Assembly: GCA_963737655.1 (NCBI GenBank)
Contig: CAVTTN010000002.1
Span: 1,920,001 to 1,984,000 of the forward strand
DNA from: an uncultured Planctomycetota bacterium
Lineage (GTDB): Bacteria > Planctomycetota > Planctomycetia > Isosphaerales > Isosphaeraceae
DNA length: 64,000 nucleotides
Direction of reading: 5' to 3'
Shown: positions 30,116 to 64,000 of the stretch, piece by piece
Numbering within the stretch: the stretch's first letter is position 1
Layout: each line of letters starts with the position of its first letter
Notes under the pieces: model-generated
Databases searched by the model: none
What the model saw: the letters and a program-made list of their open reading frames with translations, nothing else
What the model was told of the DNA's origin: nothing
Position numbers and translations under genes: made by a program

Positions 30116-30708
30116 TCGACCGACCATCGACCAGACGCCATCCAAGCCGATCACGCCCCACCCCCCGAACGACGAATCGAAGTCCCCGCCCGACGTCCAG
30201 CGACGCCGTCCCCTCGTTCCAGACCATCGAGAGCCGACCCCACCCCCGATCACCCAATCCCTCCACGTCCCCTAACGCCGCTCCCAAACGACCCCTCATG
30301 CGCGCCCCTCAAAGTGTCCCCCTTTCCTGACAAGAGACGACGGTGGAGCCCAAAAATCCGATTGACGCAAGCCCTTGTCGAATCAGTGTTTGCCCGTCAA
30401 AAAGAAACAAATTCACAAATCAGGAAACATGCCTTGGCACGAGTGACTGCGCGCTCGAAAACCCTGGAAAAACCGCCCTCTGGCGCGTTTTTCGGGGAAA
30501 GGTGTAGTCAACTTTGGAAAAAATATCGTTCAAGCATTTCTGACATTGACAAAAAATGAGCATTCTAACGAATCCATGGAATCCAAAACTCAAAATTCCA
30601 GAACGTTCGCAAGTCATCACCCAATGGTCGCCCGCAAACTCCGCACGCCCGATCTTCCCCGGCGGATTTCCCGAAAGCACCCAGATTTCCCAGGATTCGC
30701 ATGCCCCC
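30116..30708. repeat. ~600-bp dispersed intergenic repeat, copy 1
   Basis: Colinear similarity to 48771-49385 (e.g. CGAATCGAAGTCCCCGCCCGACGTCCA, ACAAATTCACAAATCA, GAAAACCCTGGAAAAACCGCCCTC). Confidence 0.8.
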
Positions 30709-48770: not shown

Positions 48771-49385
48771 CGACCGACCTTCGACCAGAAGCCGTCCGAA
48801 CCGACGGCGCGACCAAACCCATCCCAACCGCTCACGGCCCACCCCCGAACCACGAATCGAAGTCCCCGCCCGACGTCCACCGACGCCATCCCCTCGATCC
48901 AGACCATCGAGAGCCGCCCCCACCCCCGATCGCCCAATCTCGCCCCCACCCCATCACCCATCCCGAATGACCCCTCAAGCGCACTCCCCGAAGGATCCAC
49001 CAATCCGGACAAAATTCGGCGGCGAAGCTCCAAAATCCGATCGACGCAAACCGTTCGGACATCAAAATTTGCTCGCAAAAACCAAACAAATTCACAAATC
49101 AAGCAACATGGCTCGGCACGAGTGACTGTGCGCCCGAAAACCCTGGAAAAACCGCCCTCCGGCGCGTTTTTCGGGAAAACGTGGAGTCAAGTTCCGCGAA
49201 ATCGTCGATCGCGCACATCTGCCCATGACCAAACTCGAACAATCCAACCAATGAATGGAATCCAAATTAATAAATCTCGAAACATCGGCAACTTGCCGCT
49301 CGTCAGACCCCCGCAAACCCGACCCCACCCGCTTCTCTCGAGCGGATTTCCCGGAAGCCCCAGACTCCCCAGGATCGCAAGCCCC
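48771..49385. repeat. ~600-bp dispersed intergenic repeat, copy 2
   Basis: Similar to 30116-30708 in the same orientation. Confidence 0.8.
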
Positions 49386-49565
49386 GGGGACCGTCGAGTG
49401 AGTCCTCAAGGATCGAGACTCGGGTGGCATGCTCACGTCTTTGCAACCAAGGATTCGGCCGGCTTCGAATGGAAGGCATGCTCACCTCTTGGTAAGCATG
49501 CAACCCGGCCAAAGAAAATCCTTGGAAGGCGAACTCGCCGTCGGCAAAATCAACAACCGGCCCGA

Positions 49566-49617
49566 GATTATGCATCCGAAACGACGTGATAAATCACGTC
49601 GTTTCGGATGCATAATC
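49566..49617. repeat. Perfect 25-bp inverted repeat with 2-nt loop
   Basis: GATTATGCATCCGAAACGACGTGAT-aa-ATCACGTCGTTTCGGATGCATAATC. Confidence 0.95.
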
Positions 49618-49639
49618 CCGCAAATTCGGAGATTCTGCG

Positions 49640-49668
49640 TCACTTTCGATGTCTACTTCATGTTAGGC
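49640..49668 (+). other. Putative attI site (array start)
   Basis: First GTTAGGC (49662-49668) opens a cassette but is not preceded by an attC hairpin. Confidence 0.6.
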
Positions 49669-49993
49669 GGCTCAGGAGTCGAAGCCTTCGGTCGTGCTCG
49701 TCGTCGGCCTCGCCGGTCGCGCCTCGGCTCGACGACGCCATCGGTCGGGCCCCTGGAGTCGGCCTCGGCGGTGGTGCGCGTCGTCGCCCTCGCCGGCCGC
49801 GCCCCGAGGTCGGGCCCGTCGGCCGGCGCCCCCCTTGCCAACGCCGTCGGTCCGTGCCAGGATCGTCGGTGTCGGCGCGTGGGGCGTCGCCGGGGCGCCG
49901 CCTAACCCGGCGCTGCAGCGGACCCGGCCCGCGGTCGACGATCACTCTCCTCTCAATCTCGCCGGGCGCGGGCCGGTCCGCTGAGCTTTGTCG
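49663..49993 (+). repeat. ORF-less cassette, copy 1 (attC 49900-49999)
   Basis: Near-identical to 51537-51867 and 52326-52656. Confidence 0.85.
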
Positions 49994-50147
49994 TTAGGCG
50001 TCGCGCCCTCGACACGGTTGGTTTGGCTCGTCGTCGAAGTCGCTGGGAGTGCCCCTGCTGTCAAAGTCTGTGGGTTGAGCTCCGGCTTCGCCGTCGCGAT
50101 GTTCGGTCATCGTCTCCAAAGGTCATCGTCGTCGCGGTCGGCCGCCT

Positions 50148-50526
50148 CTTCGTGAACTCTTTGGCTGGGAACGGCCATCGACGCGCGACACTACCCCAAC
50201 CCCAGGCTTTGTGGCCGGGCAGCGGCGAGGTCCGGGTAGCAAACCGACGGATTCAAGAGCGGCGGACGAGGCGCGGGCCGAGAGGGGAGTCGGTTACGCT
50301 TGCAGTCTCTTCGACGGGAACATCCCCGCGAGTCGGCTCGCGGGGCGTCGCCAATGACCGGATCACGACCTCTCGGGCCAGGCTAACCTACGGGCAGGGA
50401 GCACCAAGGTGGAGACGGCCGGGAGGCCCGCGCCACACTCAGGCTACGCCGCGCCGGGTCGGCGGGCAAGTCGTCCCCGACCCCCGTTCACGCCCCGTCG
50501 GGAGCGGACGAAGGCCGCAGGATGGT
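50148..50526 (-). mobile_element. 379-bp non-autonomous IS110 derivative, copy 1 (type A), in attC 50144-50623
   Basis: GCCT|CTTCGTGAAC...GGATGGT|TAACCTC; homologous to the ends of the IS110 at 53084-54866. Confidence 0.85.
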
Positions 50527-50648
50527 TAACCTCGCGCTGCAGCGGACCCGTCCCGCGGTTGACGATTTTTCTGGTGTCCAGCCCGCTGGCCGCGGGTCGG
50601 TCCGCTGAGCTTGGTCGTTAGGCGTATTAGGTCGATCGGAGGCTCTGG

Positions 50649-51059
50649 ATGCGCAGTAGAGTCCGCTATGTCAGTGGTTTGCTATCGCTGTCCGTGCTGA
50701 TCTTTACCTCGTGCAGACCGGAGCGACCGGCGGGCAGCGAGGCGGACGCGTGGCCATCCGACCAAGAGATCCTCGCCTACCTCGATGGCAAGACGATTTT
50801 CGAGCCCACGCCTGCCTCATCGGAGAAGGGAGGTAGTGTACCCCCGAAATCCTTCTTGCTGAAGGCAGGCAACATTTCCTCCTTGGAAGTGAAGAAGTCG
50901 GGGGTTGCTGTCTCGGGCGAGCCTTGGACGACGCCGATCCATTTCATCCTCGACGAGGGGGGGCGTAAATATGCCGTTGATGCCAGCGTCGATCACCGGA
51001 AAGTCGATAATAAACGGGCCTTCTTCGGGCTCAAGGCCGAGCGCATCGCTGAGCAGTGA
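50649..51059 (+). CDS. Cassette gene: putative lipoprotein
   Basis: GGAGG RBS, signal peptide ending FTSC. Confidence 0.75.
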   Translation: MRSRVRYVSGLLSLSVLIFTSCRPERPAGSEADAWPSDQEILAYLDGKTIFEPTPASSEKGGSVPPKSFLLKAGNISSLEVKKSGVAVSGEPWTTPIHFILDEGGRKYAVDASVDHRKVDNKRAFFGLKAERIAEQ

Positions 51060-51064
51060 CGCCT

Positions 51065-51443
51065 CTTCGTGAACTCTTTGGCTGGGAACGGCCATCGACG
51101 CGCGACACTACCCCAACCCCAGGCTTTGTGGCCGGGCAGCGGCGAGGTCCGGGTAGCAAACCGACGGATTCAAGAGCGGCGGACGAGGCGCGGGCCGAGA
51201 GGGGAGTCGGTTACGCTTGCAGTCTCTTCGACGGGAACATCCCCGCGAGTCGGCTCGCGGGGCGTCGCCAATGACCGGATCACGACCTCTCGGGCCAGGC
51301 TAACCTACGGGCAGGGAGCACCAAGGTGGAGACGGCCGGGAGGCCCGCGCCACACTCAGGCTACGCCGCGCCGGGTCGGCGGGCAAGTCGTCCCCGACCC
51401 CCGTTCACGCCCCGTCGGGAGCGGACGAAGGCCGCAGGATGGT
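51065..51443 (-). mobile_element. 379-bp IS110 derivative, copy 2 (type A), in attC 51061-51542
   Basis: Same junctions and sequence as copy 1. Confidence 0.85.
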
Positions 51444-51536
51444 TAACCTCGCGCTGCAGCGGACCCCGGCCACGGGCCGCGCTCCCCTCTTCCCTCAAGC
51501 TCACTGGTCCGTGGCCGGGTCCGCTGAGCTTTGGCG

Positions 51537-51867
51537 TTAGGCGGCTCAGGAGTCGAAGCCTTCGGTCGTGCTCGTCGTCGGCCTCGCCGGTCGCGCCTCG
51601 GCTCGACGACGCCATCGGTCGGGCCCCTGGAGTCGGCCTCGGCGGTGGTGCGCGTCGTCGCCCTCGCCGGCCGCGCCCCCGAGGTCGGGCCCGTCGGCCG
51701 GCGCCCCCCTTGCCAACGCCGTCGGTCCGTGCCAGGATCGTCGGTGTCGGCGCGTGGGGCGTCGCCGGGCGCCGCCTAACCCGGCGCTGCAGCGGACCCG
51801 GCCCGCGGTCGACGATCACTCTCCTCTCAATCTCGCCGGGCGCGGGCCGGTCCGCTGAGCTTTGTCG
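51537..51867 (+). repeat. ORF-less cassette, copy 2 (attC 51774-51873)
   Basis: Repeat of 49663-49993. Confidence 0.85.
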
Positions 51868-51890
51868 TTAGGCGGCGGGAGACTCCCGCG

Positions 51891-52211
51891 ATGGATTGGC
51901 TCGAACCGTGGTGCGATGTCGCCGACCTCGGCCCCGACTTCGCGGCTACATTCGAGCGGGTTCTGGCACGCGAGGTCGCGCCGGGCCATCCCCTCCACAG
52001 CATCCCGGTCGCGGCAGTCGGCAAGCGCGACGGCACCGACGACGTGCTCTTTCGGCTGCTCGACGGCTCGGAGCGTGTCGCCGCCGTGCACCTGACCTGG
52101 ACTCGCTCCCCTCCCGAGCGGCCACCCTGGCCGGCAACCGAACTGTTCGCCGACTTCGAGGCGTTCGCCCGGCACCAGATGCGGCCCGACCATGAGGAAT
52201 TCGTGACGTAG
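51891..52211 (+). CDS. Cassette gene: hypothetical protein (attC 52232-52331)
   Basis: GGGAG RBS; fills the cassette; REVAPGHPL..DDVLF..AAVHLTW. Confidence 0.8.
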   Translation: MDWLEPWCDVADLGPDFAATFERVLAREVAPGHPLHSIPVAAVGKRDGTDDVLFRLLDGSERVAAVHLTWTRSPPERPPWPATELFADFEAFARHQMRPDHEEFVT

Positions 52212-52325
52212 CGGCGGGCACAAGAGACGCCGCCTAACCCGGCGCTGCAGCGGACCCGGCCGCCGCGGTCGGTTTCTGGTAACATCAAGGTCACTGGTCG
52301 GCGGCCGGTCCGCTGAGCTTGGTCG

Positions 52326-52656
52326 TTAGGCGGCTCAGGAGTCGAAGCCTTCGGTCGTGCTCGTCGTCGGCCTCGCCGGTCGCGCCTCGGCTCGACGACG
52401 CCATCGGTCGGGCCCCTGGAGTCGGCCTCGGCGGTGGTGCGCGTCGTCGCCCTCGCCGGCCGCGCCCCCGAGGTCGGGCCCGTCGGCCGGCGCCCCCTTG
52501 CCAACGCCGTCGGTCCGTGCCAGGATCGTCGGTGTCGGCGCGTGGGGCGTCGCCGGGGCGCCGCCTAACCCGGCGCTGCAGCGGACCCGGCCCGCGGTCG
52601 ACGATCACTCTCCTCTCAATCTCGCCGGGCGCGGGCCGGTCCGCTGAGCTTTGTCG
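52326..52656 (+). repeat. ORF-less cassette, copy 3 (attC 52563-52662)
   Basis: Repeat of 49663-49993. Confidence 0.85.
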
Positions 52657-52680
52657 TTAGGCGGCTCGGAGGCAACCGCA

Positions 52681-53091
52681 ATGGCCGAGCCTTTCGACCG
52701 CATCGCCGCGCTGGGCGAGTTGCCCCCGACGCTCGCGGCACGCCTGCGGTTCCTCCCCGAGACCGATCGCTCCGTCATCGGCACCATCCGATGCGGCGTT
52801 CTGTTCGTCATGGCCTTCTGGAGCGGCCCCGCCCGGCTGGCCTTCGCCGAACTCAAGCGGGTGCTCGCGGCCGAGGACATCGCCGGCCGCTTAGAGTTGG
52901 TCGTCGTCGATACCGATGGCTGCCCCGACCTCCAGGATCAGCCCGAGTTCACCGGCAAGCTGCACGGCGCCGGCGAGGCCGCTTGGGTTAATCAGGGCGT
53001 CATTGTCTGCACGTCGGGCCTGGGCTATCATCCCGAGTGCTTCGGGCCGAATACGCGGCGCCTCCTGGGCGAATGCGCCGCCTCCCCGTGA
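52681..53091 (+). CDS. Cassette gene: hypothetical, possibly thioredoxin-like fold; stop codon supplied by the IS end
   Basis: GGAGG RBS; AFWSGPA and VVVDTD; ends GCC TCC CCG TGA. Confidence 0.7.
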   Translation: MAEPFDRIAALGELPPTLAARLRFLPETDRSVIGTIRCGVLFVMAFWSGPARLAFAELKRVLAAEDIAGRLELVVVDTDGCPDLQDQPEFTGKLHGAGEAAWVNQGVIVCTSGLGYHPECFGPNTRRLLGECAASP

Positions 53092-53243
53092 ACTCTTCGC
53101 GCCGGCGGTTCGGCATCGGTTGATACTATGTGGGCATGATCATCGATCGGCCCGCATCCCCCCCGGCCCCCGCGACGACGGGGACGGCCCGATCCGGCTC
53201 GGCGGGGCTTGCGGTCGGGCGCCCCGCCTCCGACCCGTCGCCC

Positions 53244-54596
53244 TCACGACGGCGGCGACGGCGGCGACTTCGCCACCAGCTCGTAGCCCAGCGACCTCGC
53301 CTTGCGCCGCAGCGACCGCTCCTGCTTCGCGCGCACCTCGGCCTCGTACTCCGCCAGCGACCTCGACACGTACTCCTCGCCGTGCCTGAGCATCCGGTAC
53401 ACCAGCCGCGACAGCTTGTGCGCCGTCGCCGTGATCGCCCCCCGGCCGCCGATCCGGCCCTTGATCCGCCGGTAGAACTGGCCCGTCGCCGTCGCCGTCC
53501 GGCCCGCCGCCTGCGCCGCCATCCGCAGCGCCTGACCCACCCGGTTCTTGCCCTTGCGGGGCGTGCGACGCCGCTCGGTCTTGTTGCTCCGGTCGGTCCG
53601 CGGGCAGAGGCCCAGCCAGCTGGCGAAGTGCTTCTCGCTCGGGAACCGCCCCACGTCGCCGCCGAGCTCGGCCAGGATCACCGTCGCCGTCGTCGCGTCG
53701 ATCCCCTCGATGGCCGTCAGGTCCACGCCGATCGCCCGGGCCAGCTTGGCCGGGGCGTCGAACCGCACGTCGTTGGCCTTGCGGCCGCGCTTGCGGGGCC
53801 TCGCCGCGATCGGCCGGCCTTCGGAGCGGTCGGGCAGGCGGTCCAGCTCCTCGGCGATCCGGGCGTCGCACTCGTCGACCTGGCGGTGGAGGTAGTGGTA
53901 CAGGTCGGACGCCTGCCTCAGGGCGAACAGGTGCTCGGGCCGCCAGGTGCCCTCCAGGGCCCGGGCGATCTCCGCCTCGTCCCGGGCGCACCGCTCGTGC
54001 CGCAGCGCGGCCAGCTTCGTGGCGTCCCGCTCGCCGGCGAGGATCGCGGCGATGATCGCCGTGCCGGTGACGCCCGTGATGCTGCTGACGACCTCGGTCA
54101 GCTTCACATTCATCTGCTCCAAAGCCTTCTGCATGTGCTGGACGTGGTGCGAGGCGTACCGCACGAGCATCTGCCGCTGCCGCCAGTAGCCGCGCAGGGC
54201 CAGGACGGCCCCGGGCGGGCGGAAGGACGGGCGGAGCAGGCCGCACGAGTGGAGGCGCTGGAGCCACTGGCAGTCGAGCCGGTCGGTCTTGGGCCGGGCG
54301 CCGCAGTGGCTGGCCTGGCTCGGCTCGATGAGGAAGACCTCGAAGCCGCGCGATTCGAGCAGCTCGAACAGGGGGATCCAGTAGACGCCGGTGGACTCCA
54401 GGACCACCGAGGTGACGCCCTCGGCCCGGAACCAATCGGCCAGGGCGTGGAGGTCGGCCGAGCAGGCGCCGAAGGTGCGGACCCGTCCGGGCCCGACGCA
54501 GGCGACGTGGTTGTCGGAGTGGACGTCGACGGCGGCGGCGTGGGGGTGGACGACCGGCAGGGACGCGTCGGGATCGGGGGGCGTGCGGCGACTCAT
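53244..54596 (-). CDS. IS110-family DEDD transposase/recombinase
   Basis: AVDVH, LESTGVYW, KTDRLD (DEDD); FPSEKHFASWLGLCP..S; AITATAHKL. Confidence 0.95.
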   Translation of the reverse strand: MSRRTPPDPDASLPVVHPHAAAVDVHSDNHVACVGPGRVRTFGACSADLHALADWFRAEGVTSVVLESTGVYWIPLFELLESRGFEVFLIEPSQASHCGARPKTDRLDCQWLQRLHSCGLLRPSFRPPGAVLALRGYWRQRQMLVRYASHHVQHMQKALEQMNVKLTEVVSSITGVTGTAIIAAILAGERDATKLAALRHERCARDEAEIARALEGTWRPEHLFALRQASDLYHYLHRQVDECDARIAEELDRLPDRSEGRPIAARPRKRGRKANDVRFDAPAKLARAIGVDLTAIEGIDATTATVILAELGGDVGRFPSEKHFASWLGLCPRTDRSNKTERRRTPRKGKNRVGQALRMAAQAAGRTATATGQFYRRIKGRIGGRGAITATAHKLSRLVYRMLRHGEEYVSRSLAEYEAEVRAKQERSLRRKARSLGYELVAKSPPSPPS

Positions 54597-54629
54597 GGCG
54601 AGGGCTCCGGCGGGTGGGGGGCCAAGCCG

Positions 54630-54800
54630 TCGCGGGCCGAGAGGGGGTCCGGGGACGAGGTAGTCTCCCCGACGGGAACGTCGCGGGGCCGTGTTGACAC
54701 GGCGCCGCGGGTCACCAATGATGGGGCCACGGCCTCTCGGGCCAAGCTAACCTGCGGGCGGCGAGCACCAGGGAGATGACGGCCGGGAGGCCCGCGGCGG
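54630..54800 (-). ncRNA. Predicted bridge/seek-type guide RNA region upstream of the transposase
   Basis: Stem CCGAGAGG(54637)/CCTCTCGG(54733), inner hairpin GCCGTGT/ACACGGC, CTAACCT matching the target, CTCCCCG matching the element end; boundaries approximate. Confidence 0.65.
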
Positions 54801-54980
54801 CGACGCCGATCGTACCGCGCCCCGGTTCACGTCCGTCGGGGAGCGGTCGCAGGCCGCGCGGAGAGTTAACCTCGCGCTGCAGCGGACCCCGGCCACGGGC
54901 CGCGCTTTCTCTTCTCTCGATGCTCGGTGGTCCGTGGCCGTGTCCGCTGAGCTTTGTCGTTAGGTGGCTCGGAGCTGTCA

Positions 54981-55367
54981 ATGCTCGTTGACTCATGCAT
55001 TCCGGTCATACCCAGCGCCGATCTGGAGAGGAGCCTGCGCTTCTGGGTGGATGGGCTTGGTCTGTCCATGGATCGTGCCATGCGGCACGACGGTCGCCTC
55101 GTCGGTTGTATGGTGCATAACGAGCGGCTGTATTTTTGGCTCAATCAACGAGCCGGTCCCCCGACCGCGTCGGAGAATTACGAGGGCATACGCCTCTACT
55201 GGACGCCAGGCAACATCAAGGCCATTAGGGAGCGTCTCCTGCGACTCGGTTACGCGGCTTCCGAGATTGAGGATCGTGAATATGGACAGGCCGAGTTCGT
55301 CGTCAAGGATGATGACGGGTACTCCCATTGCTTCGGAGTCGCTACAACAAGAGCGGCTAGCCTATGA
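54981..55367 (+). CDS. Cassette gene: VOC/glyoxalase/bleomycin-resistance family (attC 55381-55480)
   Basis: DLERSLRFWVDGLG; YGQAEFVVKDDDGY. Confidence 0.85.
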   Translation: MLVDSCIPVIPSADLERSLRFWVDGLGLSMDRAMRHDGRLVGCMVHNERLYFWLNQRAGPPTASENYEGIRLYWTPGNIKAIRERLLRLGYAASEIEDREYGQAEFVVKDDDGYSHCFGVATTRAASL

Positions 55368-55497
55368 CCGCAAGGGTGCCGCCTAACCCGGCGCTGCAGC
55401 GGACCCCGCACCGCCGCGGCGCCTGTTGTCTTATCATTGCTCGCTCGGCGGTGCGGGTCCGCTGAGCTTTTGCGTTAGGCGGCGGAGAGATTCCCCG

Positions 55498-55845
55498 TTG
55501 GCGATCGACAACCCAAACGTCATCGACCTAATCGGCACCGACCGGACGACCGGCGAGGCCGTGCTCACCATCAGCGATCACCTCGAATGGGACGACCGCA
55601 ACGAGCATCTGCTGATCTTGCAAGAGAAAATCAACCGCTACATCGGTTTCATCGAGTCTGGCGAACTGCTGGAAAACTACGCGGGTGCGGCGGGCCGACT
55701 GATCCGCGTCGAGGTCGTTTGCAAGTATCCGCCGAGTGAAGTCGGCGAGCGATTCCTGAACCTCGCCAGCGAAACGTTCGAGAAGGCCGGTTGGTCCCTC
55801 ACTTGGCGTTGGTGGCCGAGCAAGCAGCTCGACGCCTCTTCGTGA
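55498..55845 (+). CDS. Cassette gene: DUF6572-like protein
   Basis: VIDLIG..LTISDHLEW..HLLILQEKINRY..FIESGE; TTG start after GGAGA. Confidence 0.7.
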   Translation: MAIDNPNVIDLIGTDRTTGEAVLTISDHLEWDDRNEHLLILQEKINRYIGFIESGELLENYAGAAGRLIRVEVVCKYPPSEVGERFLNLASETFEKAGWSLTWRWWPSKQLDASS

Positions 55846-56216
55846 ACTCTTTGGCTGGGAACGGCCATCGACGCGCGACACTACCCCAACCCCAGGCTTT
55901 GTGGCCGGGCAGCGGCGAGGTCCGGGTAGCAAACCGACGGATTCAAGAGCGGCGGACGAGGCGCGGGCCGAGAGGGGAGTCGGTTACGCTTGCAGTCTCT
56001 TCGACGGGAACATCCCCGCGAGTCGGCTCGCGGGGCGTCGCCGATGACCGGATCACGACCTCTCGGGCCAGGCTAACCTACGGGCATGGAGCACCGAGGT
56101 GGATCCGGCCACCGACCCGCGCCACGAACCGGGCTACGCCGCGCCGGGTCGGTGGGCAAGTCGGCCCCGGCCCCCGTTCACGCCCCCTCGGGAGCGGACG
56201 AAGGCCGCAGGATGGT
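55838..56216 (-). mobile_element. 379-bp IS110 derivative, copy 3 (A/B hybrid), in attC 55834-56313
   Basis: Left half type A, right half type B. Confidence 0.85.
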
Positions 56217-56329
56217 TAACCTCGCGCTGCGGCGGACCCGGCCCGCCGCGGTGCTTTCCTGTGCTATCATCATTTCCTCGGCGGTGCGGGTCCGCTGAGT
56301 TTTGTCGTCAGGGGGATTGATCGTTTACC

Positions 56330-56609
56330 GTGACCAGCAGCCGTAAGATGTCTCAGCCCGAGTTCGATGAGTGGGCCCGCTCGCGCCGACTTGGCCCTTG
56401 GCGTCACGTCCTCGTTCGGGGCGTGCTCTCGAAGGGCCTACCAATCGGCGCCGGCTGGTTGCTCGGTCATTGGCTCGCGGGTACGCTGTCCTGGAGTTTT
56501 GCGATCTGCCTGCTCCTCATCATGATCGTTGCCGGTGCCGTCGATGGGGTTAGTCGATGGCGAGGAGGGCTCCCAATCGGCTCGGCGCGAGCACGCGGCC
56601 TCTTCGTGA
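56330..56609 (+). CDS. Cassette gene: small membrane protein (3' end uncertain, possible frameshift ~56565)
   Basis: Two hydrophobic segments; as assembled the ORF reads through into the element. Confidence 0.55.
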
Positions 56610-56980
56610 ACTCTTTGGCTGGGAACGGCCATCGACGCGCGACACTACCCCAACCCCAGGCTTTGTGGCCGGGCAGCGGCGAGGTCCGGGTAGCAAACCG
56701 ACGGATTCAAGAGCGGCGGACGAGGCGCGGGCCGAGAGGGGAGTCGGTTACGCTTGCAGTCTCTTCGACGGGAACATCCCCGCGAGTCGGCTCGCGGGGC
56801 GTCGCCAATGACCGGATCACGACCTCTCGGGCCAGGCTAACCTACGGGCAGGGAGCACCAAGGTGGAGACGGCCGGGAGGCCCGCGCCACACTCAGGCTA
56901 CGCCGCGCCGGGTCGGCGGGCAAGTCGTCCCCGACCCCCGTTCACGCCCCGTCGGGAGCGGACGAAGGCCGCAGGATGGT
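56602..56980 (-). mobile_element. 379-bp IS110 derivative, copy 4 (type A), in attC 56598-57077
   Basis: Same junctions. Confidence 0.85.
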
Positions 56981-57105
56981 TAACCTCGCGCTGCAGCGGA
57001 CCCCGCACCGCCGCGGCGATTCTTGTGTTATCATCGCGTTCTCGGCGGTGCGGGTCCGCTGAGCTTTGGCGTTAGGCGGCTCGGCGAAGATGCCTCGGGA
57101 CACCC

Positions 57106-57501
57106 GTGACGTTCGACCCCGACCGAATCATGACCCTCTCGACCATGCAGTTCCGACGTTTCGGAATCGCGTGCTGCTATCGGTTGGGGTGCGACCGCAA
57201 AGACAAGCGTCTCGCGAAGGCGCTCAAGAGACTGGAGCAATCGCTGGGGCCGCCGGCCGACGAGAGCATGCGTCGTGACGCGCTCAACGCCGCCAACTCC
57301 GCTTGCCGAGACCTCTCCGCAAGCAGCGGCGTGATACAGGTCGTTGCCCGCACCCTTGTTTGTGCCTGCTGGGACGGTCCCAATGAGAATCTGATTGGGA
57401 ATTTCGAAGCGGCGCTTGAACAAGGAGAGCACTTGAGCAGGTCCGAGATCAAGGACATTGAAAGCGAGATCTTTCGGGCTATCCTGGGCGCCTCTTCGTG
57501 A
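57106..57501 (+). CDS. Cassette gene: hypothetical protein
   Basis: Fills the cassette; ends GCC TCT TCG TGA. Confidence 0.65.
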   Translation: MTFDPDRIMTLSTMQFRRFGIACCYRLGCDRKDKRLAKALKRLEQSLGPPADESMRRDALNAANSACRDLSASSGVIQVVARTLVCACWDGPNENLIGNFEAALEQGEHLSRSEIKDIESEIFRAILGASS

Positions 57502-57872
57502 ACTCTTTGGCTGGGAACGGCCATCGACGCGCGACACTACCCCAACCCCAGGCTTTGTGGCCGGGCAGCGACGAAGTCCGGGTAGCAAACCGACGGATTC
57601 AAGAGCGGCGGACGAGGCGCGGGCCGAGAGGGGAGTCGGTTACGCTTGCAGTCTCTTCGGCGGGAACATCCCCGCGAGTCGGCTCGCGGGGCGTCGCCAA
57701 TGACCGGATCACGACCTCTCGGGCCAGGCTAACCTACGGGCAGGGAGCACCAAGGTGGAGACGGCCGGGAGGCCCGCGCCACACTCAGGCTACGCCGCGC
57801 CGGGTCGGCGGGCAAGTCGTCCCCGACCCCCGTTCACGCCCCGTCGGGAGCGGACGAAGGCCGCAGGATGGT
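57494..57872 (-). mobile_element. 379-bp IS110 derivative, copy 5 (type A with a few SNPs); downstream attC truncated after 57884
   Basis: TAACCTCGCGCT is followed by non-attC sequence. Confidence 0.85.
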
Positions 57873-57909
57873 TAACCTCGCGCTCGACACCCAAGCCGGA
57901 GCATGTTGC

Positions 57910-58701
57910 ATGCGCTCATTAAGATTTGTCGTTATTACACTGTCGTTGACGGTTCGGTTCGCACCGCTCTATGCCCAGACGCCTGGAAAAAAACCGCCGA
58001 GCCGGGTTGTTGGCAGCGTGTATGGGAAGGCCGTCACCGCGGACCAGGTTGGCCTGACCTTGCCGATCGACAACACCAAGAAATTCGATGCACGAGATAC
58101 ACCCGCGTGGGAACAGATGGAGCGGGTCGCGGTGGCGTTCGGTAGCCCGGTCATGGAGCGGTTGGTCGCGCAGCGGAAGCTCGACGCCACGGCCGACGAG
58201 ATGGCCGCGTACAGGAGGGTCAACCTGATATTGAAAGGGCAGATGCTACGCGAGACGGAAGCTCGTTTGACGAAGGTCAAGGAGGAACTCGCGTCGCCCC
58301 ACCTGTCGGATGGAAGGAAAGCGGAACTGGAGAAAGAACGAGAGACGTTCGAACAGAGCCTCCCGGCGCAGCGCGAATCCGCCAGGCGTAATGACGACGA
58401 TGATGATGCTTTCGGTCGCGGGCTCATCCTCTCCTGGAAGGTCGAGCGGGAGCTGTACCGGACCTACGGCGGTCGCTTGATCTGGCAGCAATTCGGTATC
58501 GAGGCGCTCGACGCCCGCCGCCTGCTGTTCGAGGAAGCGGAGAAGAAGGGTGACCTGAAGTTCGACGATCCGGGGGTGCGGCGTCTATTTTATTACTACT
58601 CCAACATGCCTCACACTTTCGTCGGTGAGAAGGAACCAAGATTGCTGGAAGAGAAGCCTTGGTTCCTGAAGGATGGGGACGAACCGCTCCCCGAGAAGTG
58701 A
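57910..58701 (+). CDS. Cassette gene: secreted hypothetical protein (attC 58765-58865)
   Basis: Signal-like N-terminus; LYRTYGGRLIWQQFG. Confidence 0.75.
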   Translation: MRSLRFVVITLSLTVRFAPLYAQTPGKKPPSRVVGSVYGKAVTADQVGLTLPIDNTKKFDARDTPAWEQMERVAVAFGSPVMERLVAQRKLDATADEMAAYRRVNLILKGQMLRETEARLTKVKEELASPHLSDGRKAELEKERETFEQSLPAQRESARRNDDDDDAFGRGLILSWKVERELYRTYGGRLIWQQFGIEALDARRLLFEEAEKKGDLKFDDPGVRRLFYYYSNMPHTFVGEKEPRLLEEKPWFLKDGDEPLPEK

Positions 58702-58885
58702 GTGATGGGGCCGCGGCCGGAATCGAGGACATGGCGGATTTTGGCCCTAACCCGCTATGTCATGGCCTGACCTCGCGCTGCAGCGGACCCCGCACCGCCG
58801 CGGCGCCTTCTGGTAGAATCAACGCTGCTCGGGCGGTGCGGGTCCGCTGAGCTTCGGCGTGAGGCGGCGGAGGGAGGCCGATCCC

Positions 58886-59332
58886 ATGGAAGTCGTGAAA
58901 TCCAACCGCTACGGGCCGCTGGAGCCTGCTCGACTCGAAGCGTTCGAATCCCTGATCGGGTCGCGTTTCCCGGGAGACTTCCGTCAGTTCCTCCTCGACC
59001 ATAATGGCGGTCGACCCGCCTTCGATCACCTCCTCGATGCCGAGCGGGACGACTCGTTGGCGTGCCTGAACAGCACTTACGGGCTGCACGACGGACCGGA
59101 GTATTGCCGCATGGACTCGACCTTCGACACGCTCCGTGATGTGCTGCCGGCCGGCCTCATCTCCTTCGGCGACGATCCGGGAGGGAACCTCTTCTGCATC
59201 GGGGTCGCCGGGGAGTATCGAGGCCGGGTTTATTTGTGGGACCACGAGACGGCGGAACCCAAGCTGCTGGGAGAATCGTTCGAGGAGTTCCTGTCGCGTT
59301 TGGGCCCCGATCCCTGGGACGCCTCTTCGTGA
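58886..59332 (+). CDS. Cassette gene: SMI1/KNR4 (SUKH) family protein
   Basis: FPGDFRQFLLDHNGG; FGDDPGGNLFC; VYLWDHE; ESFEEFL. Confidence 0.9.
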   Translation: MEVVKSNRYGPLEPARLEAFESLIGSRFPGDFRQFLLDHNGGRPAFDHLLDAERDDSLACLNSTYGLHDGPEYCRMDSTFDTLRDVLPAGLISFGDDPGGNLFCIGVAGEYRGRVYLWDHETAEPKLLGESFEEFLSRLGPDPWDASS

Positions 59333-59703
59333 ACTCTTCTCCATCGAACGGCCGTCGATGCGCGACATTCCCCCGACCCCTGGCCGTGTGGCCGGGCAGC
59401 GACGAGGTCCGGGTGGCAATCCGACGGATTCGGGATCGGCGATCGAGGCGCGGGCCGAGAGGGGAATCGGTTACGTTCGGAGTCTCTTCGACGGGGACAT
59501 CCCCGCGAGTCGCCGCGCGGGGCGTCGCCGATGACCGGATCACGACCTCTCGGGCCAGGCTAACCTACGGGCATGGAGCACCGAGGTGGATCCGGCCACC
59601 GACCCGCGCCACGAACCGGGCTACGCCGCGCCGAGTCGGTGGGCAAGTCGGCCCCGGCCCCCGTTCACGCCCCCTCGGGAGCGGACGAAGGCCGCAGGAT
59701 GGT
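59325..59703 (-). mobile_element. 379-bp IS110 derivative, copy 6 (divergent type B), in attC 59321-59801
   Basis: Same length and ends, many internal substitutions; putative guides unchanged. Confidence 0.85.
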
Positions 59704-59883
59704 TAACCTCGCGCTGCGGCGGACCCCGCACTGCCGCTACACTTTCTGCTACGATCAACGTCGCTCGGGCGGTGCGAGGCCGCTGAGCTTGGGCGTTAGG
59801 CGGCGTCGCGGTCGGCCAGAATGTGACGAACTCGCGGAGCGTGGAACGCAGGCCGCGCGGAAACCGATCGTGAGGTTAGCGAC

Positions 59884-60399
59884 ATGAAGCTGAATGTTTC
59901 CAGCCTCGCCTTCGCCCGACACCGAGACGAAGTGCCCGCGCGGTGGCTCCTCGATATCCTCTGGCTCGTCCTCGCCTCCGGCGAGGACACGAATGGCGAG
60001 TATTCCGTCATCGAGCAGTTCATGCCCGTCGGGTCCGGCCCGCCGCCGCACGGGCATCCGTTCGAGGACGAGATGTTCTACGTCCTGGCCGGGGAGATGA
60101 CCGTCATCGTCGGCGGGCAGGAGATCGTCTTGAAGCCCGGCAGCCTGGGCCACGTCCCGCGCAACGTCGTCCACGAATTCAAGGTGACCGGCACCGACGT
60201 GTGCCATTGCCTGAACTACTACACCCCCGCCGGGTTCGAGCAGTCGGTCCTCGGGTGTTCGCGGCCCGCGGAACGGCGCGAGTTGCCCCCGCCCGGGCTG
60301 GACCCGCTTGACTCTCCGCAGGTGATGCAATTCTTCAACAACTACTGGGTCGCCGGGGCAACGCTCCCCTGGGCCCAGCAGAAGTGGTCGCCCGGTTGA
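59884..60399 (+). CDS. Cassette gene: cupin-domain protein (degenerate attC 60492-60592)
   Basis: GPPPHGHPFEDEMFYVLAGE; VPRNVVHEF. Confidence 0.9.
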   Translation: MKLNVSSLAFARHRDEVPARWLLDILWLVLASGEDTNGEYSVIEQFMPVGSGPPPHGHPFEDEMFYVLAGEMTVIVGGQEIVLKPGSLGHVPRNVVHEFKVTGTDVCHCLNYYTPAGFEQSVLGCSRPAERRELPPPGLDPLDSPQVMQFFNNYWVAGATLPWAQQKWSPG

Positions 60400-60607
60400 G
60401 CGCCAAGCGGCACGCGCCCATGCCGGTTGGGCCGGAAAACCGCATCCCGGAGTGCCGGGGCCTCGACGCCTTCCCGCTGGCGGAGGGCGGCGCCGAAACT
60501 GGCGCGGGAGCGGACCCGGCCGCCGCGATTGGTTTCTGGTAATATTCTAAGTCGCAGGCCGGCGGCCGGTCCGCGGAGCTTCGGCGTTAGGCGGCGAGGC
60601 GCGACCG

Positions 60608-61057
60608 ATGGCGAAGGGACTGCCGGGGACGGTCGCCGTCAACCACGACGATTACCACGCCGAATACGTCGGGCGAACCAAGGACGGCGCGCAATTCTTC
60701 CTCACGACGCCCTTCGTGCCGGGGGTCGGAGACCAGCCGGGCCGGGAGTTCATCGCGCTCTACCTGTTCGACAAGGCTGGCCAACTCCAGGCGGCCACGA
60801 TCGACGACCTGGGGCCTCGCGAGACGATGGATCTGGGGGCGAGGATGGCCCGCCGAGACGAGTTGCTCGCCTCGCTGGGTGAGGTCAGCTATCAGCGAAT
60901 CAAAGTCGCCCCGTTTCGGATCGAGAGGTTCGGGGTTGAGTTCGGGTTCATCCCGCAGCCGCCCGAGGAGCCGGGCGAGGACTGGAGCGTCATCGTGATG
61001 CCGGGAGACGTCATGTGCTTCTGGCCGCCTTGGTCCAGCGGCGACTACGATACGTAA
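60608..61057 (+). CDS. Cassette gene: hypothetical protein (attC 61067-61167)
   Basis: GAGG RBS; fills the cassette. Confidence 0.8.
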   Translation: MAKGLPGTVAVNHDDYHAEYVGRTKDGAQFFLTTPFVPGVGDQPGREFIALYLFDKAGQLQAATIDDLGPRETMDLGARMARRDELLASLGEVSYQRIKVAPFRIERFGVEFGFIPQPPEEPGEDWSVIVMPGDVMCFWPPWSSGDYDT

Positions 61058-61185
61058 TGCCGCGACGCCTAACCTGGCGCGGCGTCGGACCCCGCACCGC
61101 CGCGGCGCGTTCTGCTACGATCGAAGGCCGCTCGGGCGGGTGGGTCTGCTGAGCTTTGGCGTTTGGCGGCTCGGAGGGTCAGGCG

Positions 61186-61521
61186 TTGGAGGAGGCGTGT
61201 CCCCTCGAAGAAAAGCTGTCCAATGTCGCAGCCGACCTGCTGTCCGAGCGGCGGTTCGAGGCATTCGTCCGCCGCCTGTTCGCGGCCCCTCCCGGCGTGT
61301 GGCAGGGCGTGGCGGCCTGCTGCTCAAGCATGCCGGTGCTGCCGGGCCTCGCCGCCGAGGTCTTCGCCGGCCACGCCGAGTGCTTCGTGGTCACGCATCT
61401 GCCATGGCCCGGCCTTCCCTCCCGCGATCCCTACGCTCTGGTGCTGTTCCTGCACGCCGATATCATGTGGTCCACCACCGCGTTGTACAATCGCGCCGTG
61501 TTCGGGGCCGACTCTTCGTGA
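61186..61521 (+). CDS. Cassette gene: hypothetical protein
   Basis: TTG after GGAGG; ends GAC TCT TCG TGA. Confidence 0.55.
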   Translation: MEEACPLEEKLSNVAADLLSERRFEAFVRRLFAAPPGVWQGVAACCSSMPVLPGLAAEVFAGHAECFVVTHLPWPGLPSRDPYALVLFLHADIMWSTTALYNRAVFGADSS

Positions 61522-61892
61522 ACTCTTTGGCTGGGAACGGCCATCGACGCGCGACACTACCCCAACCCCAGGCTTTGTGGCCGGGCAGCGGCGAGGTCCG
61601 GGTAGCAAACCGACGGATTCAAGAGCGGCGGACGAGGCGCGGGCCGAGAGGGGAGTCGGTTACGCTTGCAGTCTCTTCGACGGGAACATCCCCGCGAGTC
61701 GGCTCGCGGGGCGTCGCCAATGACCGGATCACGACCTCTCGGGCCAGGCTAACCTACGGGCAGGGAGCACCAAGGTGGAGACGGCCGGGAGGCCCGCGCC
61801 ACACTCAGGCTACGCCGCGCCGGGTCGGCGGGCAAGTCGTCCCCGACCCCCGTTCACGCCCCGTCGGGAGCGGACGAAGGCCGCAGGATGGT
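61514..61892 (-). mobile_element. 379-bp IS110 derivative, copy 7 (type A), in attC 61510-61988
   Basis: GACT|CTTCG...GGATGGT|TAACCTC. Confidence 0.85.
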
Positions 61893-62004
61893 TAACCTCG
61901 CGCTGCAGCCGACCCCACCCGCCGCGGCGGTTTTCGGTATAGTCGATGTCGCTCGGGCGGGTGGGTCTGCTGAGCTTTGGCGTTAGGCCCAAGGAGGGCG
62001 GGTC

Positions 62005-62775
62005 GTGGCTCGGAAGCGGAAGAGCACCCCCGGTCCGTACTTGTTGTACCTTGAGGTCCTCCGCGGTCGCATCCCGGACGTCAGCCGCTTCCCGTACAAC
62101 CTGCCCGCCTTCCGCGCCCTGACGACGCTGCCGTTCCATCCCAAGGTGACGTTCCTCGTCGGGGAGAACGGGTCCGGCAAATCGACACTCCTGGAGGCCG
62201 TCGCCGTCGAGTGCGGGTTGAATCCCGAAGGCGGCAGCCGGAACTTCCACTTCGCCACGCGGGCCTCGCACTCGTCGCTCGACGAATGCGTTCGGCTCGC
62301 GAAGGCCCCGGCTTCGCCCGGCGACTGGTACTTCTTGCGGGCCGAGAGCTTTTACAACGTGGCTTCGGAGATCGAACGTCTCGACGAGGGACCGGGAGGC
62401 GGGCCGATCATCGGTGCCTACGGCGGCAAGTCGCTCCACGAGCAGTCGCACGGGGAGTCTTTTTTCGCCCTGTTCCAGAACCGGTTCCGGGACCATGGGC
62501 TGTACCTGATGGATGAGCCGGAGGCCGCGTTGTCGCCGAAGCGGCAACTCCAATTCCTCGCATTGCTCCACGACTACGTGTGCCGGGGCGGGCAGTTCGT
62601 CATCGCCACGCACTCACCGATCATCATGGCGTACCCCGAATCGCGCATCTATTTGCTGGACGGCGAGGGTATCCGGGAGATTGCTTACACGGACACCGAG
62701 CACTACCAGATCACTCGGGGATTCCTGAGCAACCCGCAGCGGTCGCTGTCGGTGCTGCTCGGTGAGGAGCGATAA
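62005..62775 (+). CDS. Cassette gene: stand-alone ABC/AAA-type ATPase (attC ~62780-62883)
   Basis: GENGSGKST, SHGESF, LMDEPEAALSP, IATHSP. Confidence 0.92.
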   Translation: MARKRKSTPGPYLLYLEVLRGRIPDVSRFPYNLPAFRALTTLPFHPKVTFLVGENGSGKSTLLEAVAVECGLNPEGGSRNFHFATRASHSSLDECVRLAKAPASPGDWYFLRAESFYNVASEIERLDEGPGGGPIIGAYGGKSLHEQSHGESFFALFQNRFRDHGLYLMDEPEAALSPKRQLQFLALLHDYVCRGGQFVIATHSPIIMAYPESRIYLLDGEGIREIAYTDTEHYQITRGFLSNPQRSLSVLLGEER

Positions 62776-62899
62776 ATAGGCCCAGCCTCGCGCCGCTGCA
62801 GCGGACCCGGCCCACCTCCTCGCTTTCTGGTAACATGAAGGTCACTCTCGGCGGCGCGGGTCCGCTGAGCTTGGGCGTTAGGCGTGTCGCGAAAGCACA

Positions 62900-63469
62900 A
62901 TGAGCGAACCGAGACTTACATTCGCAACGCAATCCGAGTGGGAAGACTGGCTTGAAGCCAATGGCAGCACTTCGCCCGGCGTGTGGCTTCGCTTGGCGAA
63001 GAAGTCTGCCGAGCAACCAACGGTCACTTATGCACAAGCGCGAGAAAGCGCTCTTTGCCACGGGTGGATCGATGGCCAAAAGCAATCGGAAAACCAGCAC
63101 TATTGGCTTCAGCGCTTTACACCGAGAACTGCCAAGAGCATCTGGTCGAAGATCAACAAGGAAAAGGCGGAGGCACTCATCACATCGCAACGGATGCGGG
63201 CAGCAGGTCTGGTCGCGATAGAACGGGCAAAATCGGACGGAAGATGGGATGCGGCATACTCATCGGCGAGCACTTCGACCGTCCCTGACGACCTGCAAGA
63301 AGCCCTTGATGCAAACCCAAGAGCCAAAACGTTTTTTGCGACGCTCAATAGCCAAAATAGGTATGCCATCTTGTTTCGAATTCAAAAAGTCAAGAAGGCC
63401 GAGACACGGGCGAAGAAGATCGCTCAATTCATTGAAATGCTCAATGATGGCGAAAAGCTCTATCCATAA
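62900..63469 (+). CDS. Cassette gene: YdeI/OmpD-associated family protein (attC 63554-63658)
   Basis: ALCHGWIDG, RFTPR..SIWSKIN, VPDDL, KKAETRAKKI. Confidence 0.9.
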   Translation: MSEPRLTFATQSEWEDWLEANGSTSPGVWLRLAKKSAEQPTVTYAQARESALCHGWIDGQKQSENQHYWLQRFTPRTAKSIWSKINKEKAEALITSQRMRAAGLVAIERAKSDGRWDAAYSSASTSTVPDDLQEALDANPRAKTFFATLNSQNRYAILFRIQKVKKAETRAKKIAQFIEMLNDGEKLYP

Positions 63470-63674
63470 CGAAGCCTGTCTAGTTGATGCAGAAAAGTTT
63501 ATCAAAATGATACATGTTAAATATTGATACTTGTCATAGACTGCGAGCGTCCCGCCTGACCTCGCGCCGCAGCGGACCCGGCCCGCCGCGGCGCCCGCTG
63601 GGGATGCGTAGGACAGACTCGGCGGGCCGGTCAGGTCCTCTGAGCTTGATCGTTAGGCGGCAGGAGACCCCACG

Positions 63675-64000
63675 GTGGACGAGCCTGGGTTTTGGAAGAT
63701 CATCGATGCGGCCGGGCGAGCAGCCCACAGTGACCCCGAGCGGCAACTCTCCGCCGTCCGCAAGCGGTTGAGCGATCTCGCGCCGAGGAACTGGTCGAGT
63801 TCCACGCGATCTTCAACCGCAAATTGGCCGAAGCCTATACCTGGGACCTCTGGGGCGCCGCCTATCTCATCAACGGTGGGTGTTCTGATGATGGCTTCGC
63901 CTACTTCCGGGCCTGGCTTATCTCATGTGGTCAATCCGTCTACTCTTCAGCCCTCCGCAAACCCGACTCACTGTCGAGCATCGTCGATCCCGATCGCGAC
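63675..64000 (+). CDS. Cassette gene: DUF4240-like protein (frameshift ~63785; 3' partial)
   Basis: FWKIIDAA then LWGAAYLINGGCSDDGFAYFRAWLI. Confidence 0.8.
   Translation, partial: MDEPGFWKIIDAAGRAAHSDPERQLSAVRKRLSDLAPRNWSSSTRSSTANWPKPIPGTSGAPPISSTVGVLMMASPTSGPGLSHVVNPSTLQPSANPTHCRASSIPIA

Follow-up and report, generated by a model that had tools for sequence, protein, structure and literature searches.

The window analysed here, 64,000 nucleotides from an uncultured Planctomycetota bacterium (GenBank assembly GCA_963737655.1, contig CAVTTN010000002.1, positions 1,920,001 to 1,984,000), is an integron cassette array from 49.6 kb onward, with a copy of the attI site at its head, and eight of its attC recombination sites are occupied by a mobile element. 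These insertions are probably the work of an insertion sequence (IS) of IS110 type, whose bridge recombinase would be guided to the R'' end of attC, and of a 380-bp relative that carries guides; the rescue of interrupted cassette genes would be incidental, and the occupied attC weakened. Under this explanation a seven-nucleotide guide, AGGTTAG, in an RNA from the upstream region would programme the recombinase to the host R'' end, and the 380-bp element likely loads a helper transposase with its own RNA, thereby directing its own circle-out and insertion. The crossover leaves TAAC and the end motif of the element gives an in-frame TGA, so that cassette genes mostly gain two residues and attC keeps a four-base-pair R box. 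This sparing would stem from the ancestry of the end motif and the fixed register of the crossover, not from tailoring, and riding on cassettes moved by the integron integrase IntI would be a minor route at most, the observed spread presumably owing to the element's own transposition.

Occupied attC sites and target choice

The eight window junctions (50147, 51064, 53083, 55837, 56601, 57493, 59324 and 61513) share one layout, namely GCC (once GAC), then the element, then TAACCT. A sequence-only reading of this DNA had described R'' as turned into GGTTAAC or AGTTAAC with its AAC kept, and this is borne out at all eight, with seven of the former and one of the latter. Its insert size of 379 bp needed correction: the net size is 380 bp, one T being shared, in seven cases, while the copy at 53083 is instead an autonomous IS of 1,784 bp. 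The features concerned, including open reading frames (ORFs) and haplotypes distinguished by single-nucleotide polymorphisms (SNPs), are as follows.

50147..50526, minus: 380-bp element, major haplotype; target guide 50383-50389, donor guide 50307-50313
50527..50623, plus: occupied attC, arm intact
50649-51059: cassette ORF with its own stop, upstream of the 51064 element
51064..51443, minus: 380-bp element; empty twin cassette at G000:C2:6787455-6787992
51444..51542, plus: occupied attC, arm intact
52681..53091, plus: cassette ORF ending TCC CCG TGA in the IS right end
53083..54866, minus: autonomous IS110-type element, 1,784 bp
53244..54596, minus: IS110 RNA-guided transposase, 450 aa
54627..54800, minus: bridge-like RNA of the IS; target guide AGGTTAG 54747-54753, donor guide CGGGGAG 54665-54671
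54694..54722, plus: sigma-70-like promoter match in the IS left end (consensus match only)
54867..54965, plus: occupied attC, arm intact, R stem shortened
55498..55845, plus: DUF6572 cassette gene ending at the element TGA
55837..56216, minus: 380-bp element, recombinant-looking variant
56217..56313, plus: occupied attC, triplet mismatch (R' GTC)
56330..56983, plus: cassette ORF in another frame, running through the whole element, not rescued
56601..56980, minus: 380-bp element, major haplotype
56981..57077, plus: occupied attC, arm intact
57106..57501, plus: cassette ORF ending at the element TGA; identical cassette body at C2:1679336
57493..57872, minus: 380-bp element, three-SNP haplotype
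57873..57884, plus: truncated attC, cut after 12 nt, hairpin gone (fold z +1.1)
58886..59332, plus: SMI1/KNR4 cassette gene ending at the element TGA
59324..59703, minus: 380-bp element, divergent variant, 87% identity, guides unchanged
59704..59801, plus: occupied attC, one L-box mismatch
61198..61521, plus: cassette ORF ending GAC TCT TCG TGA
61513..61892, minus: 380-bp element; bridge-like RNA 61634-61802
61893..61988, plus: occupied attC, arm intact

Across the 7.6-Mb genome (G000 in coordinates) all 36 element copies lie at attC sites of the type GCC^TAACCT, with TAACCT next to the element, antisense to the cassette and near the attC 5' end, the insertion point falling between the C and T of C^TAAC. 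The empty twin of the 51064 cassette shows the pre-insertion site, and target duplication is absent. A tolerant pattern detected 77 attC-like sites genome-wide, 34 of them occupied, and missed two further occupied sites that are too degenerate. Occupancy was 34/53 for AACCT, 0/14 for AACCC (five distinct sites once a cassette repeated ten times is collapsed) and 0/6 for GACCT; one guide base separates hit from immune sites. Seven linear target matches outside detected attCs are unoccupied, and therefore either the hairpin helps or such insertions are purged. Help from a hairpin is reported for targeting by ISPpu10 (10.64898/2026.03.19.712850).

In the genomes G082 and G038, too, elements with the guide AGGTTAG sit at this position of attC. 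A tree of 32 rows, with long branches flagged, places G038 apart from the G000 clade, which hints that attC targeting may have arisen twice. One G082 relative sits in a coding frame with no attC arm. Further relatives (L122-L128, L137-L140, L147) carry guides GGTGGAG, AGCGAAG, GGGTTAG, GGATGAG and CAAAAAG, and their targets are repeated non-attC motifs, some of which may be similar to repetitive extragenic palindromic (REP) elements. An apparent target-site duplication in relatives L014-L017 was rejected, because the sequences on either side are not the same and the target is a repetitive one.

The bridge-like RNA and its guides

The region upstream of the transposase gene aligns over 24 distinct elements and has a conserved multibranch fold. 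In it 95.6% of cells are paired against 43-45% in slid controls, and two-sided changes occur in 13 of 40 pairs; the shuffle test, however, is inflated by the kinship of the elements, and in the short stems around the target loop no two-sided change occurs. The abundance of G-U pairs argues for the transposase strand. Within the family, 22 of the 121 genomes contain a match to this RNA model, whereas Rfam at its gathering threshold has no match within 49300-64000.

The first internal loop bears the target guide on its 3' side, as a variable 7-mer that equals the six bases to the left of the element: over 18 guides, 42 of 53 distinct pairs of guide and left flank agree at 6/6 and 50 at no fewer than 5/6, and 14 of the 18 guides match at their first locus against a permutation mean of 0.05. 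The IS and the 380-bp element share the guide AGGTTAG, which is attC R'' read on the element strand. A second 7-mer, the donor guide, equals the right end of the element and changes along with it, reading CGGGGAG in the window IS, TGGGGAG and TTGGGAG in relatives, CGAAGAG in the 380-bp element and TGAAGAG in a mini element at locus L009. The only close transposases in the genome belong to the six full and two broken copies of the IS, whose donor guide CGGGGAG mismatches the end of the 380-bp element at two of seven positions; thus, the 380-bp element would supply its own RNA.

The autonomous IS and the 380-bp element

The IS transposase matches NF033542 (253 bits, cut-off 140) and belongs to the IS110 family by its DEDD RuvC domain and its PF02371 domain with the catalytic serine. 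All catalytic residues (D24, E67, D105, D108, S337) are present, the serine motif being SN instead of SG here and in several relatives. Non-coding stretches of 270 nt and 161 nt lie upstream and downstream of the transposase gene, which is antisense to the cassettes. According to PMC11187229, transposases of the IS110 subgroup have 395-455 aa and a long non-coding region upstream, and those of IS1111 have 330-350 aa and a non-coding region downstream; since the present protein has 450 aa and an upstream region, the IS is of IS110 type, and its membership in the IS1111-attC group was rejected on the same grounds. This RNA-guided identity, and the guides of the small element, had escaped the sequence-only reading. 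The IS ends share only a 7-nt inverted motif, which lies about 35 nt inside the left end and 4-5 nt inside the right one. The genome holds six full and two internally deleted copies, the 1,784-bp form being represented by three identical ones.

Several observations accompany the IS. The sigma-70 match at 54694-54722 is antisense to the bridge RNA, faces the downstream cassettes and is missing from the 380-bp element; judged by its consensus, it could be an outward promoter or yield an antisense RNA like Asr9. Stumps at G000:C2 290832, 291155, 293670, 1118573 and 1119607 start like the IS right end, lack the rest and continue into GAAAAGGGGAC-type repeats, which also flag the deletion in a 648-bp IS remnant at G000:C2 6791945. 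Degenerate attCs follow decayed left-end sequence at G000:C2:4298612 (minus strand) and 819745, and are possibly footprints of older insertions. A distant IS110 element of about 40% identity (L150, G080:C84) has the same right-end motif as the window IS.

With 28 copies, 15 of them identical, the 380-bp element is far more numerous than the IS (six full copies). It has no transposase, only a complete bridge-like RNA between a left end and a short right end; its IS-like ends and many near-identical copies at the IS target mark it as a non-autonomous IS110 hitchhiker. Its guides are unchanged in copies that diverge by 13-17% elsewhere, and the same element, at 83% identity, occupies attCs of G080. 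At L009:1810-2213 a longer mini element of 394 nt, with a different and longer target guide and the donor guide given above, stands in tandem directly behind a full IS, so placed that the tandem holds a right-end to left-end junction. Deletion derivatives of about 480 nt that retain the RNA and the parental donor guide are found at L096 (G005) and L191 (G026); transposase-free forms recur in the family of the window IS. Metagenome pattern scans for the donor guide of the 380-bp element gave no match at first and later 23, none of which has a target loop or transposase, and single matches in 7 of 400 other genomes of the phylum are probably due to chance.

Stop codons of the interrupted cassette genes

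The five cassette ORFs that the sequence-only reading described as ending within the element do so, and keep the frame once closed by the TAA; their last codons are TCC CCG TGA (53091) or TCT TCG TGA (55845, 57501, 59332, 61521). In all five this frame has the highest third-position GC content (GC3, 0.73-0.85), and two of the products are Pfam matches (DUF6572, SMI1_KNR4) whose domains end before the junction. Automated ORF choice at the 36 sites placed the stop in the attC TAA at 23 (six of these ORFs being shorter than 60 codons), upstream at ten, and beyond it as read-through at three. One of the latter (61513) is in frame 0 by GC3, so that two ORFs go unrescued and run 126 codons through the element, the window case being 56330, ending at 56983. 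Continued translation of the cassette genes, as judged from these frames, is thus well supported for those that stop in the attC TAA.

At this GC content one given frame meets a stop within three codons with a chance of about 6%, and the five TGA endings are one event rather than five, because they are copies of one element end. The TGA is the end motif GTTCA read in reverse complement. Of 36 related ends that were parsed, 25 have it at codon 3 (24 of 35 if the misparsed L147 is dropped); most of these belong to elements with non-attC guides, and the motif is spread over clades with many targets in the 32-row tree. At 18 loci with non-attC guides and long flanks, open frames of at least 80 codons number 6, 4 and 6 across the three frames, with no enrichment of any one. 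Conservation of the TGA frame in homologues, proposed earlier as a check, was found, yet it does not discriminate, as relatives with other targets share it. The rescue therefore looks incidental, and an adaptation of the TGA to attC was rejected as unsupported; the simplest reading of these sequences is an ancestral end motif that happens to fit, one that may have helped an attC-resident lineage persist.

Is the occupied attC still usable?

The hairpin had been called intact in seven of the eight window sites. This is correct for the L-box arm, lost only at 57873, but the R stem is reduced from 7-10 pairs to four, and at 56217 R' reads GTC in place of GTT, leaving the full triplet pair in six of eight. 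Genome-wide, 26 occupied sites keep all 11 constrained pairs, with AAC/GTT and the fourth pair complementary, the L box and the extrahelical base. According to PMC5371416 four R-box pairs are constrained while the outer four need not be complementary, and low but detectable recombination occurs with one site at a pfold of 1e-5; non-complementarity of the triplet costs about 400-fold (PMC2811028). We computed pfold as defined in PMC5371416, excluding sites with mismatched constraints or another register. The 26 occupied sites have a median of 0.076 (range 0.008-0.46, 6/26 above 0.1), compared with 0.76 for the same sites emptied in silico (25/26 above 0.1) and 0.83 for natural empty sites (20/20 above 0.1). 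When 10-100 nt of flank are included, occupied sites have a predicted triplet pairing of about 0.008 versus 0.6-0.8 (34 sites), because the left end of the element pairs with the R'' arm. Predicted recombinogenic folding thus drops about 10-fold, or about 70-100-fold with flanks, and by this model the occupied attC is probably weakened tenfold or more, not dead. The earlier picture of a harmless passenger survives in part: most cassette genes end in the element TGA and four R pairs persist, but predicted folding is about 10-fold lower.

Cassette duplications bear on the same question. In three cases an identical cassette body is found again with an element in one copy or both, and in none of the three pairs is the passenger element identical. 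One pair is occupied versus empty (the 51064 cassette); another is occupied in both copies, one lying first after attI (C2:1672908) and the other inside the main integron (C2:6786458), with elements one SNP apart (shared SNP C153T); the last is also occupied in both, the two copies differing by three SNPs and in their attCs. The haplotypes hint that copies have undergone conversion, which makes the lack of identical passengers weak evidence.

Weighing the explanations

We doubt that the arrangement is harmless by design, with the occupied attC working normally and the element gaining a real second route as a cassette passenger. The retained TAAC/GTTA pairs and L-box arm speak for it, as do a pfold above 1e-3 at 26/26 scored occupied sites (six above 0.1), the confinement of the R-box constraint to four pairs in PMC5371416, and the recurrence of the first cassette after attI as an occupied cassette of the main integron; but C153T separates the elements of that very pair, three SNPs and unlike attCs set the members of the other doubly occupied pair apart, and the third pair is occupied versus empty. 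Moreover, the most amplified cassette (10 copies) has a never-occupied AACCC site, the left end competes for the R'' arm once flanks are included, the TGA is ancestral, two ORFs are unrescued and the relative L142 lies inside a coding frame. The opposite extreme, that occupied attCs are recombination-dead, so that arrays are frozen and cassettes move only after element excision or as blocks between empty sites, strikes us as similarly improbable. It would account for triplet pairing of about 0.008 with flanks (0-2 of 34 sites above 0.1), an R box that is open in minimum-energy folds, the absence of an identical passenger pair, and an immune 331-bp cassette that follows the occupied duplicate at both loci; against this, pfold by the published definition (0.008-0.46) lies within the range of recombining sites in PMC5371416, and the triplet is unchanged, whereas the roughly 400-fold cost in PMC2811028 stems from its non-complementarity. 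A further alternative regards the 380-bp element as an ordinary miniature inverted-repeat transposable element (MITE), of which the ends alone matter, moved by the IS bridge RNA, its own RNA region being a relic or an antisense regulator like Ssr9. MITEPpu9 ends, at 1-3 mismatches from those of ISPpu9, nevertheless circularise (PMC12288879), and L096 and L191 derive by simple deletion and retain the donor guide of the parent. We nonetheless consider this unlikely, given that two right-end changes are mirrored in the donor guide, that guides stay constant in copies 13-17% divergent elsewhere, that L009 offers a third version, C to T in both places, and that the fold is kept.

The favoured account, a guided IS110-type recombinase with a guide-carrying 380-bp relative, has points that weigh against it. 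The right-target guide yields partial matches of 4-6 nt whose register shifts between elements, and the bridge-like RNAs of the elements compared hold no match to a right-donor guide. Both RNA expression and trans-mobilisation of the 380-bp element are inferred from sequence, and pfold is a model. An autonomous IS with GAAGAG ends, so far unseen, may have been the ancestor of the 380-bp element, which would then have inherited the guide-end match; no such IS was found among the parsed loci, a thin sample. As for the incidental stop, the non-attC status of other targets was judged by eye, and four of the six frame-0 cases among non-attC relatives come from a single lineage, whose target also has a stop in register; the TGA may thus have a wider role, although the translations of these cases were judged not gene-like. 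In its boldest form the account becomes that of a 'guide-only' transposon, in which a 380-bp bridge-RNA gene re-programmes its helper, out-replicates it, converges on the one register of attC that spares both gene and site, and could also travel with cassettes between attI-headed arrays and hosts; this we hold to be quite improbable.

The favoured account implies that attC targeting is not limited to IS1111 but also arose in a lineage of IS110 type, among whose relatives no fewer than 17 further guides are read. The 380-bp element would let nature show whether a bridge RNA can be selfish by itself and, through an orthogonal donor guide, compete for a single recombinase. With IntI intact and nearly two thirds of the susceptible attCs occupied, this genome allows a direct test of whether attC-targeting elements freeze cassettes or ride on them.

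Integron setting

The single intact integron integrase of the genome is a 326-aa frame at G000:C2:6777135-6778073 (TIGR02249, above cut-off), which serves all eight attI-like copies. These lie at window 49509-49669 and at G000:C2 283789, 1121503, 1672881, 5876300, 5881642, 5884876 and 6778250; several head their own cassette arrays, and the long copies each have a palindrome upstream of attI. A pair of 400-bp low-complexity repeats of 75-90% identity (window 30162-30569 and 48842-49248) has one member just upstream of the attI copy. The 331-bp cassette is present in 10 near-identical copies, often in tandem, with an AACCC attC in every copy and no element in any. The truncated attC is followed by a gene of low GC content, about 260 codons long, that has a GACCT-type attC of its own (57873-58765); this arrangement suggests aberrant recombination or deletion.

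49636..49669, plus: attI copy at the array head, intI not adjacent
49663-49993, 51537-51867, 52326-52656: window copies of the 331-bp cassette

Comparison with known systems

The literature covered describes neither an IS110-type attC element in planctomycetes nor a mini element that brings a donor guide of its own; papers behind subscription, ISfinder and the supplements on bioRxiv lay outside this scope and may contain such a case. The closest parallel in target choice is the IS1111-attC group (ISPa21, ISPst6, ISKpn4, ISPa25), which shares an RNA-guided DEDD transposase and an antisense position near the attC 5' end (PMC3001079, PMC11187229), but the size of the window transposase and the side of its non-coding region, described above, differ from those of IS1111. 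Since the window IS is of IS110 type, its attC targeting is convergent with that of the IS1111-attC group. Group IIC-attC introns (S.ma.I2) are an independent mobile element at the same attC end, which block upstream transcription and offer an outward promoter (PMC3001079), yet they are retroelements of unrelated mechanism.

In mechanism the window elements resemble IS621/ISEc21, with an upstream structured RNA, target and donor guides, a two-base core, no target duplication and repeat elements as natural targets (PMC11208160); the bridge mechanism is also treated in PMC13626964, while 10.64898/2026.08.14.744561, PMC8876359 and PMC12444791 bring nothing further to the comparison. They differ in having core AG in the target and AA at the element junction, in a bottom-strand target match on the 3' side of the loop, an IS1111-like order, and in a multibranch RNA in which the right-donor guide was not found. 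The 380-bp element in turn is most like MITEPpu9/ssr9 with ISPpu9, a transposase-free, RNA-bearing IS110 hitchhiker with an AG core, which occurs alone or in tandem behind its IS, as at L009, and for which circles have been demonstrated (PMC12288879). In the available portion of that paper the MITEPpu9 RNA is discussed as an antisense regulator, the target is REP and an own donor guide is not described, whereas the 380-bp element outnumbers its IS by 28 to 6 and its donor guide covaries with its end.

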